The notes below the pieces were generated by a model. The model searched no databases, was not told the DNA's origin, and saw only the letters and a program-made list of their open reading frames with translations. A stretch of DNA of 64,000 nt from a virus: positions 1-64,000 of the IMG/VR virus record IMGVR_UViG_3300009506_000005, one strand, 5' to 3'. The position numbers were made by a program, and so were the translations under genes. Below are positions 23,651 to 46,062 of this stretch, in pieces. Within the stretch, counting starts at the first letter, position 1. Each line of letters begins with the position of its first letter.

Positions 23651-24345
23651 ATGACAACATCAAGCCGAGAATGGAAGATGGTATCCCGATTTGTGACAGC
23701 GATTGCCCGCCGGAGATTGGCTATTATCAGTGCGCGGTAGCCCAGGACGAGTGCCCTGCCTACTACCGATCCGCCTTAGCCGATGAGCGCAAGAAGCGGA
23801 TCGCTCTCAACAAGGGTCTGAATCAGATCCTGAATCTGTTCCCGGAATCGAAGGCAAAGCTGGGACTCAGCGGGGCACCGGCATCGTGCCATCGCGAAGA
23901 AGACTGGATGGATGAGCACGTCCAGGCCGTTGTTGCCGAAGTGGAAGACAATGTGTCCGATGCTCAGGCCGAGATTGAGCGGCTGAAACAAGAGGCATTG
24001 AATGACGCCTCTAGCATAGGTGCATACCAGGGTCGCGGAGATGGGTGGAAGCACCGCGCCGAGGAAGCGGAAGCCTCCCCGGCTAAGGTGCCGCTCATCA
24101 AGGAGATGGCAGGCGAGGAGCTGAATCGGGTTCTCGATGTCTGCGCAAAGATGGCCGAGGAGATATTGGATCGCCGCCACAAGATGCGCGACCTGGATCC
24201 GCGATGGTACATCTCTCAGGACATTGCCGAGGAATACGGTGTCGGCGTTGCCTGTGATCCAGATCGTCTCGGCAGGACGGAAGACTCCCCCGATCTGATT
24301 GATACCCTCCTCGCTACGCCATCCACCAAGAAGGAGAGCGAATGA
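23647..24345 (+). CDS. Hypothetical protein; N-terminus paralogous to preceding gene
   Basis: IKPRMEDGIPICDSDCP vs IKPKMINGKAVCDRSCP. Confidence 0.55.
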   Translation: MNDNIKPRMEDGIPICDSDCPPEIGYYQCAVAQDECPAYYRSALADERKKRIALNKGLNQILNLFPESKAKLGLSGAPASCHREEDWMDEHVQAVVAEVEDNVSDAQAEIERLKQEALNDASSIGAYQGRGDGWKHRAEEAEASPAKVPLIKEMAGEELNRVLDVCAKMAEEILDRRHKMRDLDPRWYISQDIAEEYGVGVACDPDRLGRTEDSPDLIDTLLATPSTKKESE

Positions 24346-25319
24346 TCACCTCCCGCGAAGACTGGTTGGAGGCGCGCCTCAACGGCATCGGCGGCAGCGA
24401 GGCACCCGTCATCTACAACGGCTCCGTCTACGATCGCACGATCATGGACCTGTACCTGGAGAAGCGCCGCATCGTCGAGCCCCCAGATATCAGCCACAAG
24501 CCGGACATCCAGCGAGGCAACTGGTTGGAGTCCATCGTCGCCAAGATCTATGCCAAGGAGCATGGCGTGGACGTGGACGCGCCCTTGGACAAGGTGGACC
24601 AGTGGAACCGCTTCTTCCACTGGAGTGACGAGCACCCATTCATGTTCGCGAACATCGACTTCCGGATCCGGGGCGCGAAGGTCATGGGGGAGATCAAGTG
24701 CCCGCGCGTCCGTGGCTTCATGAAGGTCTCGCGCGAGGGGCTCCACGAGCACTACCTGCTCCAGGTCATGCACGATATGGCAGTGACCGGGGACGAGCGC
24801 TGCGTCTTCCTCGTGTTCTCGGCGGAGATGTGGAAGCTCCACGTGGAGATCATCGAGCGGGACGAAGCCCTCATCTCCAAGATCATCGACGCGAATCGCG
24901 CGTTCTGGGACTGCGTGGAGCGGGGCCAGCCACCGGTGCATGAGGCGCCGGGCTCCAAGGAGAAGGTGACGGCCAAGAGCGAGAAGATGCCGGACGCCGG
25001 CGACTCGGAGATCGTGCGGCTGGAGACCCCGGACTTCTCGTCTGCCGTGAAGCAGTACCAGGAGGCCCAGGATCTGATCGCCGAGGTCACCGAGATCAAG
25101 AACGAGGCCAAGAAGCAGGCCATCGACCTCATGGGGAAAGCGGAGATCGCCGAGGGCGGCGGGTGCCGGGTCTTCCACAAGGAGGTCCCCGGGAGGAAGA
25201 CGCTGGACAAGAAGGCGCTCCAGGCCAACCACCCGGACATCGACCTCAAGAAGTTCGAGAAAGTGGGCAAGCCGTTCCGGCAGTTCAGGATATTCAACAC
25301 CTCGGCCGACGCCGAGTAA
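24342..25319 (+). CDS. YqaJ-like viral recombinase / lambda-Exo-type exonuclease
   Basis: WLEARLNGIGGSEA, GNWLE, HPFMFANID, GEIKC, YLLQVMH. Confidence 0.92.
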   Translation: MITSREDWLEARLNGIGGSEAPVIYNGSVYDRTIMDLYLEKRRIVEPPDISHKPDIQRGNWLESIVAKIYAKEHGVDVDAPLDKVDQWNRFFHWSDEHPFMFANIDFRIRGAKVMGEIKCPRVRGFMKVSREGLHEHYLLQVMHDMAVTGDERCVFLVFSAEMWKLHVEIIERDEALISKIIDANRAFWDCVERGQPPVHEAPGSKEKVTAKSEKMPDAGDSEIVRLETPDFSSAVKQYQEAQDLIAEVTEIKNEAKKQAIDLMGKAEIAEGGGCRVFHKEVPGRKTLDKKALQANHPDIDLKKFEKVGKPFRQFRIFNTSADAE

Positions 25320-25343
25320 CAACGAGAGAAGGAGAGAGATACG

Positions 25344-26309
25344 ATGCCGAAGAAGAAAGACGAACAGGACAAACAGAACCAGGCGCAAGGGAACCAGGGG
25401 CAGGAGCAGGGCCAGAACACGCAGCTCGCCAAGCCGTCTCCCCTCGCGACCATCCGTGACATGATGGTCGCGAAGAAGAACCAGTTCGCTGTGGCGCTGC
25501 CCAAGCTGATCGACCCCGCCCGCTTTATGCGCGTGGTGATGACCACCATCAAGGCCGACGGTAACCTCCTGGACTGCACCCCGGACTCCCTGTTCCGCGC
25601 GGTGCTGGCCTCGGCACAGGTGGGACTGGAGCCGGACCCCGTGCTCGGTCACGCCTACCTCATCCCGTTCTGGAACAACAAACGTGGCGTGCGCGAGGCC
25701 CAGTTCCTGATCGGCTACAAGGGGCTCATCGAGCTCGCCCGCCGCAGCGGCCAGGTCATCTCCATCTCGGCGCAGGTGGTCTACGATGCGGACGAGTTCG
25801 AGTTCAACTACGGCCTGGAGTCCGATACCCTCTCCCACAAGCCGAAGCTCGGGAACGAGGACCGGGGTGCCCCCAAGGCCGTCTGGGCGAAGGCCGTGCT
25901 CAAGGATGGCGGCCGGGCATTCGAGGTCATGTCCGTCGCCGATGTGGAGAAGATCCGCAAGATGTCCAAGGCCGGGGACTTCGGGCCTTGGAAGGACCAC
26001 TGGGATGAGATGGCCAGGAAGACCGCCGTCCGCAAGCTGGCAAAGTACCTGCCCCTCTCGCCCGAGTTCCAGCGGGCGGCCGCCATCGACGAGGCCCTGG
26101 AGCTCGGCCACTCGGCGGACCAGATCTTCGCCGAGCTCGAAGTCCTGGATGATGAGCAATCCGATCAGACCGAGCAAGGCGCTGTCGAGAGCACTGGCAC
26201 CCAGGGCAAGCTCGATGACCTCAAGAACAAGGCCGCGGCCGTGAAGGGCTCTCAGACGCCCGAGGATGGCGCCACGCCCGAGACCGGGCCCGAGGCAGCC
26301 AAGGAGTAG
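25344..26309 (+). CDS. recT: RecT ssDNA annealing protein
   Basis: GLEP..LGHAYLIPF..EAQFLIGYKGLIELARRSG; GPW..HWDEMARKT. Confidence 0.95.
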   Translation: MPKKKDEQDKQNQAQGNQGQEQGQNTQLAKPSPLATIRDMMVAKKNQFAVALPKLIDPARFMRVVMTTIKADGNLLDCTPDSLFRAVLASAQVGLEPDPVLGHAYLIPFWNNKRGVREAQFLIGYKGLIELARRSGQVISISAQVVYDADEFEFNYGLESDTLSHKPKLGNEDRGAPKAVWAKAVLKDGGRAFEVMSVADVEKIRKMSKAGDFGPWKDHWDEMARKTAVRKLAKYLPLSPEFQRAAAIDEALELGHSADQIFAELEVLDDEQSDQTEQGAVESTGTQGKLDDLKNKAAAVKGSQTPEDGATPETGPEAAKE

Positions 26310-26320
26310 GAGCGCCGGCT

Positions 26321-26364
26321 GAGCGGCGCGTGGGAAGCTCCCAGCGGGTTTTCGCGCGCCGCTT
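26321..26364 (+). terminator. GC-rich stem-loop after recT (possible terminator, no clear U-tract)
   Basis: AGCGGCGCG...CGCGCCGCT outer stem with an internal TGGGA/TCCCA hairpin. Confidence 0.4.
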
Positions 26365-26392
26365 GACTCCGGCCACCGAGCGACGGTATGGT
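26363..26392 (+). promoter_or_regulatory. Promoter TTGACT-N18-TATGGT for the replication operon
   Basis: Near-consensus hexamers; predicted TSS ~26398 coincides with the start of the structured RNA. Confidence 0.6.
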
Positions 26393-26397
26393 CGGGG

Positions 26398-26520
26398 TGC
26401 AAGTCTGAGAAAGAGGAGTTGATGACACACGCGAGCAGGAAGCGGGAGCCGAGTGGGATTGTGGCCTACCAGCCTCTTTCTCGACTTGCAGCTCGGCCCC
26501 CGCTTCGTGTCCGTGTGTGT
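26398..26520 (+). ncRNA. Structured cis-regulatory leader RNA (pseudoknot or mutually exclusive helices)
   Basis: 26398-26416 pairs 26473-26490 (18 bp, one bulge); 26425-26453 pairs 26492-26520. Confidence 0.6.
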
Positions 26521-26538
26521 GACGAGGATATCCGATGA
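26422..26538 (+). CDS. 38-aa leader peptide coupled to rep (ATGA overlap)
   Basis: SD AGAGGAG then ATG 26422; MTHASRKREPSGIVAYQPLSRLAARPPLRVRVCDEDIR*; TGA overlaps rep ATG 26535. Confidence 0.5.
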   Translation: MTHASRKREPSGIVAYQPLSRLAARPPLRVRVCDEDIR

Positions 26539-27734
26539 GAGCTCCGTACACCTGTCTCTATCGAGAAATATGGAACGACGATAAATTCACGTCCATGACA
26601 GAGATCGGGAAACTCGTATTCCTCTATGTTCTCTCTTCCCCACTTGGCAACGGCCTCGGCTGCTTCAAGGCTGGCAAGGCTGCAATGGCTGAGGATATGG
26701 AATCATTCCCGGAACGATTCGAGGAAGGATTCGAGGAAGGATTGCGGAAAGGATTGTTCGAATACAACAGCCAACGTCGAGTGCTATTGATCACGAAATA
26801 CTTCGATCGGAACCCACCGATCAATCCAAATGGCATCAAGGCGCTGGCGAAAGACTACTTGACCGTTCCTGAGTGTGATCTTAAATTCAAGTGTTATCAC
26901 ATTGTTAGGGAGTTTTGCGAAAGCAGAAAGGAATCATTCGTTGAAACATTCCTTGAATCATTCCAGGAACCATTAAGCGAATCATTGCCGGAACAACCAG
27001 GATCGATCTCCCCTTCCCCTTCCCCTTCCCCTTCCGTTTCCCCTTCCGGTACTATCTCCGATAGTACGCAGAGGGGAAGGGAACCGCGCGCAAGCGCGCC
27101 CGTCTATTCTAATAATCAAAATGATGGGGAGCAGAGGGAGGATGTTGAGCAATCTTCTCCCCCATCCTTTTCGTTGGCCTTCCCAGGGATGGAGCCTACG
27201 AAGGACCCGAAGAAAATGGGGATGCCGAACCTGGATGAGTACGACCCCGAGAGCAAGGAGTACCTCTTCCTCTTGGAGGTCAAAATCCAGTTCGGTGAAC
27301 GAGTGAACGAGTGCACGACCAGGACCTTGCAACGCTTGGCTCAAGAGTTGTGCGGTGAGCGATACAACCTTATCGATGCCCATGACATCGCCATCGAGGC
27401 GAAGAGCTGGGAGGATGACCACCCGGAAAAGAAGAAGACGGGGCGAGGAATCCCGGCGTTTTTGCGCAGGTGGTGCAAGACCGAGCAGTTCAAGAAAGAG
27501 AAGGAGGAGGCCGAGAAGGAGGCTGCCAGAGAGGGGAGGGCCTCCGAAAAGGAGAAGCCAAAGCCCAAGGGCCCCAGTAGGCACCCGGATCTCCCCTACC
27601 TCGATGAGCTCCCCGAGATGCAGGAGATAGAGCGAGACCGACAGATGCTGCGGAAGAGGGCGCGCGAGGAGGAGGCGAGGAAGCAGGCCGAGGCAGAGGC
27701 CTCGTCTGGCGGGAAGGAGGTGGCCGATGCCTGA
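26535..27734 (+). CDS. Phage replication initiator (replisome organizer-like)
   Basis: IWNDDKF..GKLVFLYVLSSP..NGLGCF N-terminal wHTH, NPPINPN, 4-aa repeats and SPSPSP linker. Confidence 0.75.
   Translation: MRAPYTCLYREIWNDDKFTSMTEIGKLVFLYVLSSPLGNGLGCFKAGKAAMAEDMESFPERFEEGFEEGLRKGLFEYNSQRRVLLITKYFDRNPPINPNGIKALAKDYLTVPECDLKFKCYHIVREFCESRKESFVETFLESFQEPLSESLPEQPGSISPSPSPSPSVSPSGTISDSTQRGREPRASAPVYSNNQNDGEQREDVEQSSPPSFSLAFPGMEPTKDPKKMGMPNLDEYDPESKEYLFLLEVKIQFGERVNECTTRTLQRLAQELCGERYNLIDAHDIAIEAKSWEDDHPEKKKTGRGIPAFLRRWCKTEQFKKEKEEAEKEAAREGRASEKEKPKPKGPSRHPDLPYLDELPEMQEIERDRQMLRKRAREEEARKQAEAEASSGGKEVADA
26700..27049 (+). repeat. 12-bp-period repeats (GGAAxCATTC/GGAAGGATTC) and TCCCCT tandem within rep; candidate iterons/origin
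   Basis: Two clusters at ~26700-26762 and ~26931-26995; (TCCCCT)n at 27009-27047; AT-richer gene. Confidence 0.55.
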
Positions 27735-28152
27735 GAGGTTGATGGAGAGGGGTCATGCCACCGGACTCCGCGACTTGTTCGGCAAGATGATCTGCTTCGG
27801 CGATCGCTTGCGCTTCCGTGGTAATGGTGGAGAGGTCTGGTCCTCGATAGTAATCTTCGAGGACGGCATGTTCACCGTGTCCTACCTGAGCAAGGACGTG
27901 ATCTGCGAGCAGAATCCGCGTGGCTGGGATCGTGAGCATGACTGGACGTCTTGCAGAATGTGGAGCACGAAGGTCGGCTACCCGGAGTACGGTACGGCGA
28001 ACAGCCCGCGCCGTCCGCTGACGCAGATCGCGGACTACTGGCTGGACGGCGAGTGGGAGGACTTCTACCAGAGGTACGGCTACTCTGGTGGCCGCATCAT
28101 CAAGGCTGAGATCGTGGACGAGAACGAGATGAAAGGAGAGGCAAATGGCTGA
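27727..28152 (+). CDS. YopX-like protein fragment
   Basis: TGLRDLFGKMICFGDRL resembles YopX TGLKDKNGKEIYEGDI. Confidence 0.55.
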   Translation: MPERLMERGHATGLRDLFGKMICFGDRLRFRGNGGEVWSSIVIFEDGMFTVSYLSKDVICEQNPRGWDREHDWTSCRMWSTKVGYPEYGTANSPRRPLTQIADYWLDGEWEDFYQRYGYSGGRIIKAEIVDENEMKGEANG

Positions 28153-29140
28153 GAGCGAGAAGGTTCAGAAGTTGGTGCGCCCGGTTCTGGTCACGCCGGA
28201 GAACCACGCCGAGTACGATGCGATCGGACCGGATGACAGGTTCTCGATGCAGTTCCGCGAGGCACTGGACGCGATGTTCAGCTTGAACAAGCATCTGGAT
28301 GATCGCCTGGCGCAGTTCACCAAGGCTCCGAGGGACTGGGGCGGTGGGTACGCCACGTGGCTGGAGTCGTTCGGCATCGCGCACGAGACGGAGAACGGGT
28401 GGTGGTCTCTGGCGGCGATCGACCCGGACAACATCGACGCCTTCGTGGAGATGCGCGAGGACGCGGTGTGGGGGCATCGCTGCGATCTGGCGCAGGACAT
28501 CCTCTCCGATGTGGCGAGGATGGGCGATTTCCGTGCGCGGGTGGATTCGGTGCGGGAGATCGTGAACCGTCTGTGCCCGATGATGAAGGCCGTGAATCCT
28601 GAGGACGTTCGCGAGGAGGACTTCCTGGAGGACGAGGATGACGGCGTCGTTGACGTGCGGCTTGGCCCACGCGAGGAAGACATTGTCGCGATGATTCCGT
28701 TCAAGGGAAACTCCGTGGGCTACATCCACTCCAAGATGGTCTGCTACAAGGACCAAGTCGGCATGGCGTTCGATGCGCTGCGCGATCTCGGGTTCGACAC
28801 GAGCAAGGGCCGTGACAACAACGAGCTGCGCGAGCTGCTCAAGAAGTTCGTGGCGAAGAAGTGCGAGGAGCTACAGGATCTCGACAATGAGGTTCTCAGG
28901 CTCAAGAGGCACAGCGCGTTTCTGGAGCGGCACGGCAAGAACATGTCCATCCTCTGCGACAGGGCCATGGAGTGGTGGGAGAGGATGACCGGAGGATCGC
29001 TAGTTGGGGTGACGTTGGATCCCCACAATCCAGGCGCTTTCCTCTCATGGGAAGCTATCCAGGAGAATGACCAGTTTCCCATCACCGACAAGGCGATCGG
29101 CGAGTGGGATGTGGAGAAGGCGTTGGAGGGACCGGAGTGA
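28145..29140 (+). CDS. Hypothetical protein
   Basis: SD AAAGGAG; coupled ORF. Confidence 0.55.
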   Translation: MAESEKVQKLVRPVLVTPENHAEYDAIGPDDRFSMQFREALDAMFSLNKHLDDRLAQFTKAPRDWGGGYATWLESFGIAHETENGWWSLAAIDPDNIDAFVEMREDAVWGHRCDLAQDILSDVARMGDFRARVDSVREIVNRLCPMMKAVNPEDVREEDFLEDEDDGVVDVRLGPREEDIVAMIPFKGNSVGYIHSKMVCYKDQVGMAFDALRDLGFDTSKGRDNNELRELLKKFVAKKCEELQDLDNEVLRLKRHSAFLERHGKNMSILCDRAMEWWERMTGGSLVGVTLDPHNPGAFLSWEAIQENDQFPITDKAIGEWDVEKALEGPE

Positions 29141-30300
29141 AGTGGGTCAACACAGATCAGTGGGTACCCATCAAGTCATGGTGCGAGGACATCGAAGACG
29201 GCGCGATGGAGCAAGCGAAGGATATGGCCAACCACCCGGCCGCGTTTCGGCATGTGGCAATCATGGCTGACGGACATCGGGGATACGGCGTACCGATCGG
29301 TGGGGTGATGGCCTGCACCGACGCCATCATTCCCTTCGCGGTTGGCTCTGACATCGGCTGCGGGATGGCCGCGGTGAAGACCACGGCCCGGGCCAGCGAT
29401 CTGACACCCGATCGGCTGCGTGAGATCATGGGCCACATCCGGGCGGCTGTGCCGATGGGCGTTGGCAATGCGCACACAGAGGATCAGCCATGGGTTGGGT
29501 TCGAGCGATTCCCGAAGAGTGTCGAGCACCTGATCCCGAACGCGCGCAAGCAGCTTGGCACCCTGGGCGCCGGCAACCACTTCATCGAGATCCAGGCTGA
29601 CGAGGATGATGGAGTGTGGTTGATGCTGCACTCCGGGTCGAGGAACCTTGGCTACAAGATCGCCGAGAGCTGGCACAAGAAGGCGGTCCAGCTCTGCGAG
29701 GCATGGCACTCAAACATCCCCTGCAAGGAGCTTACCTTCTTCCCGCTCCACTCCATAGAGGGTCACGGCTACAAAGAGGCGATGGACTTCGCGCTTGAGT
29801 ACGCCAAGGCAAACCGGCAGCTCATGCTCGGCAGGGTGATGATCGCCACAAGCCGCGTTCTCGACTGCACGTTCGAGGAGGAGATCAATATCCACCACAA
29901 CTACGCCGCGGTGGAGAACCACTATGGCAAGAACGTGGTGGTGCATCGGAAGGGCGCCACGTCCGCACGCAAGGGCGAGCTCGGGATCATCCCCGGCTCG
30001 ATGGGGACGGCGAGCTACATCGTGACCGGCCTCGGGAACCGGGAGTCGTTCGAGTCCTGTTCCCATGGAGCTGGCCGCGTCATGGGCCGGGCGCAGGCGT
30101 GCCGAGAACTCACCATGGAGGAATGCAACAAGACGATGGAGGGCATCATCTTCGGGCGCTGGGGCCAGGACAGGAGGGGGCGTGTGGACCTGTCTGAGGC
30201 GCCACAGGCCTACAAGAACATCGACCAGGTCATCGCCTCCCAGGACGATCTCGTTGAGGTGGTGGTGAAGCTGCGGCCGTTGGCTGCGATGAAGGGGTGA
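29137..30300 (+). CDS. rtcB: RtcB RNA 2',3'-cyclic phosphate/5'-OH ligase
   Basis: GSDIGCGM, GTLGAGNHFIE, HSGSR, HHNY, HRKGAT, IPGSMG, SCSHGAGR, EAPQAYK. Confidence 0.96.
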   Translation: MKWVNTDQWVPIKSWCEDIEDGAMEQAKDMANHPAAFRHVAIMADGHRGYGVPIGGVMACTDAIIPFAVGSDIGCGMAAVKTTARASDLTPDRLREIMGHIRAAVPMGVGNAHTEDQPWVGFERFPKSVEHLIPNARKQLGTLGAGNHFIEIQADEDDGVWLMLHSGSRNLGYKIAESWHKKAVQLCEAWHSNIPCKELTFFPLHSIEGHGYKEAMDFALEYAKANRQLMLGRVMIATSRVLDCTFEEEINIHHNYAAVENHYGKNVVVHRKGATSARKGELGIIPGSMGTASYIVTGLGNRESFESCSHGAGRVMGRAQACRELTMEECNKTMEGIIFGRWGQDRRGRVDLSEAPQAYKNIDQVIASQDDLVEVVVKLRPLAAMKG

Positions 30301-45666: not shown

Positions 45667-46062
45667 ATGCTGGACACGCTCAAGAGCCTGACCGGCCAGT
45701 GGAGCGGGGCGCCGATCTGGAAGAAGGTGCTCCTGGCCATCGGCATCGTGCTCGTGGCCGTGCTCGTGGCAGTGACCTTCTGGCTGTACCTCAGGCCGAA
45801 GGATGACGATGACTCACCGGCCTTCAAGGTGGCCGAGGACCGGGGCGAGGTGATCGATGGGATCGTCGCCCGGAACGAGGAGCGTGATCGGGAGCTCGCC
45901 GCGGATGGCGAGAAGTTGCGCACCGAGCGCGAGGACATCGAGAAAGAAATCGCCGAGTCAGGCGAGGGAAGGGAGGCGTTCCATGAGGAAGTGGATCGCG
46001 CCGCTGCTCGTGGTGACATCGCTGGCATTGACGCTGCCCGCGATCGCAGACGACAACGATAG
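45667..46062 (+). CDS. Membrane-anchored coiled-coil protein (i-spanin-like)
   Basis: N-terminal TM followed by charged coiled coil. Confidence 0.45.
   Translation: MLDTLKSLTGQWSGAPIWKKVLLAIGIVLVAVLVAVTFWLYLRPKDDDDSPAFKVAEDRGEVIDGIVARNEERDRELAADGEKLRTEREDIEKEIAESGEGREAFHEEVDRAAARGDIAGIDAARDRRRQR

Follow-up and report, generated by a model that had tools for sequence, protein, structure and literature searches.

The 64,000-nucleotide (nt) window analysed here, the first 64 kb of a 113,769-bp phage record in IMG/VR (IMGVR_UViG_3300009506_000005; direct terminal repeats, ~62% G+C), carries a real, conserved structured 5' RNA, absent from Rfam, in front of a phage replication initiator/organizer gene. 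This leader element is located within a 225-nt gap that separates recT (25344-26309) from a gene for a protein of 399 amino acids (aa) on the + strand (26535-27734), which we call rep. The conserved part of the encoded protein is its N-terminal ~150 aa, which match PHROG families of DnaD-like helicase loaders and replisome organizers and are ~30% identical to a "DNA replication protein O" and a "primosomal protein" of two cultured phages; on the strength of these protein comparisons, replication initiator/organizer appears a reasonable name for the predicted product. Two interleaved helices define the RNA, and a short open reading frame (ORF) runs through both of them into the rep start codon. 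We put the chances about even that the first ~125 nt of the initiator transcript act in cis as a two-state translational gate that includes a coupled leader ORF.

The element consists of four segments in the order A<B<C<D on the + strand. Segment A (26398-26416), made up of a 5'-terminal module, TGCAAGTC, and a Shine-Dalgarno (SD) module for the leader ORF, GAGAAAGAGG, pairs with segment C (26473-26490), which in turn holds an anti-SD module, CCTCTTTCTC, and an anti-5'-end module, GACTTGCA, and ends 1 nt before D. Segments B (26425-26453; lower stem ~26425-26437, upper stem ~26439-26453) and D (26492-26520) form the 5' and 3' arms of a long hairpin, in whose apical loop C follows a 5' part, L (26454-26472), that is unpaired in the window phage. 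A:C comprises 18 pairs and one bulged T, with a duplex energy of -29.9 kcal/mol that was matched by 0-1/1000 shuffles. B:D, with 26 of 29 positions paired in an ungapped register (-48.4 kcal/mol), is the sole inverted repeat of its quality in the whole 113.8-kb genome when ungapped pairs are counted on both strands; this count was adopted as the genome null, a seeded duplex-energy scan being too permissive at 62% GC. Against shuffles, the element region as a whole gave a folding z of -4.2 to -4.5. Both helices, including the single bulge in A:C, were found where a preliminary description of the sequence had placed them, and the interleaved order that it reported was likewise confirmed. Rfam covariance models run over window positions 24000-29000 at E <= 10 returned only a plant microRNA-model artefact on the hairpin, far under the gathering score, and at E <= 1 none matched the five relatives introduced below; the Infernal search that had been suggested as a check therefore assigned neither the window nor its relatives to any family.

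No close DNA relatives of the phage were found among cultured phages. Protein searches yielded 17 homologues with the rep N-terminal domain, and pattern scans derived from the homologue alignment yielded 16 metagenomic loci, three viral loci (on the same contigs as three of the 16) and one locus in a metagenome-assembled genome. Five of the loci recovered, L005, L007 (identical with L008), L011, L013 and L020, present the A<B<C<D layout in unrelated sequence upstream of their rep homologues, and together with the window they form the six loci compared throughout. The layout is also found in L015, a locus truncated by the end of its contig. Among element-bearing loci the rep N-terminal domain is 50-69% identical; in all six, C ends 0-1 nt before D, and the B and D arms span 18-29 nt with 0-3 single mismatches. 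Approximately 77 loci encoding more distant relatives of rep (31-36% identity) were found to be without the element, and IMG/VR, scanned with a pattern for the conserved motif of the loop, gave 65 matches, of which the only one with the flanking helix lay on the known L013 contig. Upstream of one distant rep homologue (38% identity; L016:2870-3000) we observed a promoter followed by one long nested hairpin of ~30 bp, with a 6-nt 5'-terminal CGGGGG complementary to CCCCCG in the hairpin loop, which may be a degenerate or alternative form of the element. Long hairpins with large loops and T-runs upstream of rep at L025:1170-1290 and L032:1390-1470 were set aside, as they look like terminators or unrelated small RNAs.

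Comparison of these leaders, which the preliminary description had proposed as a test of the structure, revealed that both helices covary. For A:C, the 5' flank of each locus paired best with its own loop in 6/6 rows and columns (-20 to -30 kcal/mol, vs -5 to -19 kcal/mol for non-cognate combinations), and within each of the six loci 0-1/1000 shuffles were as good. When the C-D junction is taken as the origin of a fixed register, the outer 8 pairs of A:C are 97.9% paired in cognate and 47% in non-cognate combinations, two to four pair types occurring in 7/8 columns; the corresponding values for the upper 17 pairs of B:D are 95.8% and 48%, with 2-4 pair types in 17/17 columns. A MAFFT alignment of the six leaders was not structure-consistent, and B:D was also examined on an alignment of four well-aligning relatives (A4). 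On A4, 92.7% of B:D is paired and 15/29 pairs have changed on both sides, values that were reached by 0/500 shuffles, while slid controls were 33-42% paired. Between the close relatives L013 and L015 the loops are identical, and the stem differences are exchanges of G-C to A-U or to and from G-U that keep every pair.

The distribution of G-U pairs identifies the strand on which the structure forms. B:D contains 19 G-U pairs on the + strand, and its - strand counterpart is 15-16 kcal/mol weaker in L005, L011 and L020; A:C is near-pure Watson-Crick (5 G-U in 96 pairs) and equally good on both strands. Since the G-U pairs of B:D are lost on the - strand, the structure is one of + strand RNA and not of duplex DNA, and the sequence features taken together place it at the predicted 5' end of the initiator transcript. 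A sigma-70-like promoter, TTGACT (26363-26368) and TATGGT (26387-26392) separated by 18 nt on the + strand, was detected by consensus scan at the position given in the preliminary description, where shuffles are expected to give 0.4 sites. Transcription is predicted to start at ~26398-26400, which would make the first nucleotides of A the first nucleotides of the transcript. A strict consensus scan found no promoters in the relatives, whose -10 hexamers are TAnnnT-like and weak, and a relaxed positional search was used instead. This search identified a -35 of TTGAC(A/T) or TTTACT, a 17-nt spacer and a -10 of TAnnn(T/A) in L007, L011, L013 and L020, and a weaker counterpart in L005. In 5/6 loci, with spacers of 17-18 nt, the -10-like hexamer ends 4-6 nt 5' of the first paired base of A. 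On the - strand between 25800 and 27200 the consensus scan gave no promoter-like site for a counter-transcript, although an unusual promoter could escape such a scan. Directly 3' of the recT stop, folding and an inverted-repeat search also revealed a GC-rich hairpin on the + strand (26322-26363; arms 26322-26330 and 26355-26363) with 9-bp arms and a 24-nt loop that holds an inner mini-hairpin. It lacks a T-run and with its 3' arm reaches the -35 of the leader promoter; it may terminate the upstream transcription unit or modulate the promoter.

The leader ORF (26422-26538, + strand; 38 codons, or 39 from an in-frame TTG at 26419) is preceded by the SD sequence GAGGAG (26413-26418) and spans B, the loop, C and D. 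Its TGA (26536-26538) overlaps the rep ATG at 26535 in the arrangement ATGA, and its SD lies inside helix A:C, both as previously described. The rep gene has an SD of its own, GAGGA (26524-26528), ahead of the start codon (26535-26537, + strand), and this SD is not significantly paired in either fold, neither with D nor with the loop. Pairing of D with the rep SD, the arrangement of a classical three-segment switch, was considered and rejected, being no better than shuffles in the window, L005 and L007. Across the relatives, one ORF crosses the whole element in 6/6 loci. In the three loci of the window type (window, L005 and L007) it ends as ATGA on rep, with a joint shuffle probability of 7e-4; in the others the crossing ORF begins at an ATG inside A and stops 20-31 nt beyond the next start. 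The leader peptides are dissimilar among loci, and therefore, if these ORFs are read at all, the act of translation alone could matter. The overlap of the rep ATG with the TGA of a preceding protein ORF persists in those rep homologues that lack the element. Within the ~200-450 nt upstream region, the overlapping ORFs are helix-turn-helix/excisionase-like (57-66 aa) in L006 and L014, HNH-like in L009 and L017, and of other kinds in L018 and L021. Coupling of rep through ATGA to its upstream neighbour, of whatever kind, seems to be a habit of the family.

In every locus the B:D loop holds an anti-SD segment adjoining an anti-5'-end segment, and the target of the former differs among the relatives. 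In the window and L007, the anti-SD occupies the 5' half of C, and its partner is the leader-ORF SD in the 3' half of A; between the two modules of A:C lies the bulge in the window and an internal loop in L007. In A:C of L005, it is the in-frame ATG of the leader, and not an SD-like sequence, that the inner half covers. A consists of the 5'-end module alone in L011, L013, L015 and L020, where the anti-SD makes up the 5' part of the loop and its partner is the SD of the gene that follows; this pairing was reached by 1-4/500 shuffles in L011, L013 and L020, the loop of L015 being the same as that of L013. A small conserved ORF of 56-99 aa (MxxSQAEIQAQLEAAN...) was observed between the element and rep at L011:185-355, L013:2825-2992 and L015 ~100-357; it is present as well at L012:2825-2992, but there an 86-aa ORF replaces the RNA element. 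The preliminary description had further proposed a second target for C at the start of rep, the 8-nt TCGAGAAA (26561-26568). The match exists; its conservation and significance were not borne out, as a loop match of this length occurs in 3% of random 87-nt stretches of the genome, no relative has one, and cognate loop-rep energies are no better than non-cognate ones. A search of the 113.8-kb phage genome for other trans targets of the loop found only A and an unremarkable 10-mer at 45938.

The order in which the two helices could form was examined by minimum free energy (MFE) folding of growing chains, which describes equilibrium and not kinetics. In 6/6 loci A:C is complete once C is out and lasts until 10-14 nt of D have been made, and the best fold flips wholly to B:D at 12-16 nt. 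The energies of A:C and of the upper B:D stem are -29.9 vs -27.0 kcal/mol in the window and -27.9 vs -29.6 kcal/mol in L007, and the best fold to retain A:C is 8-20 kcal/mol less stable than the full hairpin. The linker between A and B measures 8 nt in the window and 7 nt in three relatives. Because C abuts D, stacking of the helices would separate the 3' end of A from the 5' end of B by the full length of ~47 bp (~130 Å), a distance that an 8-nt linker cannot span. On this geometric argument, A:C and the complete B:D helix probably exclude each other in space.

In the gate that we propose, the closed state would have A, comprising the RNA 5' end and the leader SD, paired with C, so that the start of the leader ORF is blocked. 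In the open state, with B:D formed, C would be unpaired in the hairpin loop and A single-stranded, and ribosomes could load on the leader ORF; translating ribosomes would then melt the hairpin, stop at the TGA over the rep ATG and pass to rep. As C is made before D, the closed fold would form first on every new chain, and, as both polymerase and ribosomes release RNA in the 5' to 3' direction, it should re-form after each passage and would probably do so behind each ribosome. The more stable B:D would then have to take over, and the element would thereby delay initiator synthesis or limit its rate. In relatives with the other wiring, the helix between the loop and the SD would assist A:C in closing the ribosome site of the first ORF. 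The use of the leader by ribosomes, the direction and trigger of the switch and its effect on the level of Rep are all features that we infer. In kind, the reading offered in the preliminary description, that of a pseudoknot or switch RNA acting together with a coupled leader peptide, was right, whereas its details of a second target and antisense control are not supported. We also considered a more specific form of the gate, which we regard as tentative and on balance unlikely, in which each passage of polymerase or ribosome re-forms A:C and a slow takeover by B:D re-opens the leader site, the gate thereby resetting itself kinetically. In a variant of this form, the loop of one molecule would clamp the 5' end and SD that flank the hairpin foot of another.

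Several observations weigh against a translational gate. Full examples of the element number six only, all from metagenomes. A:C and B:D share no nucleotides, which leaves the case for their mutual exclusion a geometric one, and A:C could feasibly coexist with the lower third of B:D as a partial pseudoknot. The good, unpaired SD of rep itself (GAGGA) could permit Rep synthesis without the leader, in which event A:C might not control rep. Furthermore, the complete B:D places the leader ATG 0 nt from the hairpin foot, which should hinder initiation. Finally, the leader peptides are not conserved, and the leader ATG is without an SD in three relatives.

An alternative that we consider unlikely is that the element governs processing or stability of the transcript, with B:D as an RNase III site and A:C shielding the 5' triphosphate end from 5'-end-dependent decay; a cut in B:D would part the anti-SD loop from the message. 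B:D is indeed a near-perfect double-stranded RNA of 26-29 bp, or 2.5 turns, with 1x1 mismatches at a conserved depth (one mismatched column is unpaired in 4/4 rows of A4), and a stem of at least ~20 bp of nearly uninterrupted double-stranded RNA, as RNase III sites have, is available in the 18-29-nt arms of all six loci. A:C begins at the predicted first RNA nucleotides in all loci, and in L011, L013 and L020 removal of the loop would release the SD of the next gene. In the window, however, the same cut would leave the leader ORF without its SD and start codon, so that a conserved, ATGA-coupled ORF would be pointless, and both the energy balance between A:C and upper B:D and the abutment of C and D would be left unexplained. 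RNase III processing hairpins are known from phage early transcripts, among them the T7 R sites and the lambda N leader. Like these, the element has a long near-perfect hairpin with small mismatches beside a ribosome site in the leader of an early gene; it also has a conserved pairing of loop and 5' end and an ORF that runs through the hairpin, neither of which is known from those sites. RNase III may thus be a rival to the translational gate or an added layer upon it.

We hold it to be rather improbable that the element is an antisense RNA of the P1 c4 or P4 CI type, in which the B-loop-D hairpin would be excised as a stable small RNA whose loop binds the 5' ends of further operon transcripts, resulting in a dose-dependent shut-off of the initiator as copy-number control or as immunity against related phages. 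Consistent with such a role, antisense C and target A lie on the same strand in the same transcript, A:C is almost all Watson-Crick and B:D rich in G-U, and in L011, L013 and L020 the loop order L-then-C would be antiparallel to the SD and A at the hairpin foot of a second molecule. The phage also encodes a tyrosine recombinase, which makes a temperate life possible. The P1/P7 c4 and P4 CI immunity RNAs (Citron & Schuster 1990, via PMC8198154) likewise have complement and target in one same-strand transcript, with the target covering a ribosome site; here, A and C both lie past the predicted start. Unlike those RNAs, which belong to an antirepressor operon, the element is located in a replication module and not beside an antirepressor, and it matches neither Rfam C4 nor any other family. 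Targets on both sides of the antisense segment, a trait of C4, were not found, the proposed second target in rep being unconserved, and the loop has no other target in the 113.8-kb genome. In addition, no ParA/ParB partition genes were found in the phage. Membership in the P4 CI/P1 C4 group, whose target-antisense-target layout the preliminary description had named as an analogue, is therefore not upheld, and its notion of a copy-number or immunity switch is speculation; the data favour a translational gate on the initiator.

It appears quite improbable that the RNA adopts one static fold, a partial pseudoknot of A:C and lower B:D with the 5' end threaded, that binds Rep or a host factor for autoregulation. 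A does lie at the free 5' end, as loop threading requires, and the linkers would suit an H-type knot (7-8 nt between A and B in 4/6 loci, and ~15-17 nt of upper D). Conserved unpaired nucleotides suited to a protein pocket, or to a ligand pocket of the riboswitch type, were nevertheless not found, as loops and linkers vary among loci and 2/148 alignment columns of the six leaders are invariant; moreover, covariation in the upper B:D stem is as strong as in the remainder, and this stem must therefore form at some time. Phage origins are often located near the initiator gene and operators usually overlap the transcription start, but although the element adjoins its initiator gene, A overlaps the predicted start and A:C is equally good on both strands, a DNA-level origin, operator pair or recombination site built from two interleaved inverted repeats is highly improbable because of the asymmetry of B:D, whose G-U pairs become A-C mismatches on the opposite strand, and the repeats covary freely though the Rep N-terminal domain is 50-69% identical across loci, while the element boundaries follow the transcription start, the SD and the stop/start overlap, all of them RNA features.

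Leader-coupled control of plasmid initiators has reportedly been worked out for repY-repZ and tap-repA in studies attributed to Asano and Mizobuchi (1998), Athanasopoulos (1999) and Blomberg (1992), which are among the references listed in PMC10724649. In these leader-peptide-coupled systems (IncI-alpha, IncB and IncL-M repY-repZ and R1 tap-repA), as in the window, the stop of a short leader ORF overlaps or abuts the initiator start, and translation of the initiator can depend on that of the leader. The proposed gate further resembles repY-repZ in that leader RNA structure would decide whether the leader is read and in that a hairpin loop pairs with a distant single strand. It may differ in that neither the consensus scan for promoters nor the - strand fold, much weaker in the relatives, pointed to a counter-transcribed antisense RNA here. 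The IncI pseudoknot lies beside the rep ribosome-binding site and is activating, whereas in A:C the partner of the loop is segment A, with the 5' end and leader SD, 120 nt upstream of rep. In the window we found no short activating pseudoknot adjoining the rep ribosome-binding site, and the 18 bp of A:C would occlude a ribosome site. Nor is the rep site of the window locked in a local stem-loop as in the I-complex plasmids, although in L011, L013 and L020 the SD of the following gene is paired with the loop. IncI helices measure 4-8 bp compared with 11-29 bp here, the initiator is in this case a phage O/DnaD-like protein, and no sequence or Rfam relationship with the IncI systems was detected. 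The analogy with IncI repYZ drawn in the preliminary description holds for the coupled leader ORF; the activating pseudoknot and the locked ribosome-binding site of those plasmids were not found in the window, nor, within the reach of a consensus scan, was a promoter for an antisense counter-transcript.

Parallels in folding behaviour are provided by the maturation gene of MS2, in which folding is delayed such that the open fold comes first and the closed fold is final (PMC4615214), and by type I toxin messenger RNAs (mRNAs), whose metastable hairpins sequester the SD (PMC6733600). As in those leaders, an SD is held in a long-distance helix with its complement, one partner being at or near the 5' end, a conserved and probably exclusive alternative hairpin exists, as indicated here by the covariation of both helices, and the order of synthesis would set which fold forms first, as suggested by the MFE folds of growing chains. 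Unlike in MS2, the closed A:C would come first and the open hairpin would be the stable end state. The element also differs from both the MS2 and the toxin leaders in that its anti-SD is found 3' of the SD, within the competing hairpin's loop, and in that its two folds share no nucleotides.

A RecE/YqaJ-like exonuclease (24342-25319) precedes recT, which immediately precedes the gap, and RtcB (29104-30300) is encoded 3' of rep. An open frame of 728 aa on the - strand (24216-26402), antisense to recE/recT and reaching into segment A, was rejected as a gene and represents a shadow frame within GC-rich coding DNA. The tyrosine recombinase is encoded on the - strand beyond the window (locus L167, 76942-77433; Pfam Phage_integrase, 71.6 bits), in the second half of the phage. 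Searches of the phage genome for a serine recombinase, ParB_N and a ParA-like AAA_31 domain gave no match to any of them. A temperate life of the phage is accordingly possible, while a plasmid-like existence as a plasmid-prophage is not indicated.

To our knowledge, the regulation of phage initiator proteins is poorly known outside transcription control of the lambda type, and covariation support for both alternative folds is uncommon among transient structures. The element described here constitutes a new RNA motif, a structured leader absent from Rfam in which both alternative folds are supported by covariation. Its design is unusual for a switch, as the helices are interleaved without shared bases, the 5' end of the RNA is itself used, and the energies are balanced across distant relatives. 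Being compact and open to well-defined mutations, it offers a test case for how folding order and ribosome transit set translation rates. If the self-resetting form of the gate were true, initiator synthesis would be metered per unit time, independent of mRNA level, and two helices without a shared nucleotide would exclude each other purely through topology; in the variant in which one molecule clamps another, the RNA would sense its own concentration. Across the family, the loop anti-SD is aimed either upstream at the leader ORF or downstream at the next gene, pointing to evolutionary rewiring of the element among the relatives of this phage.

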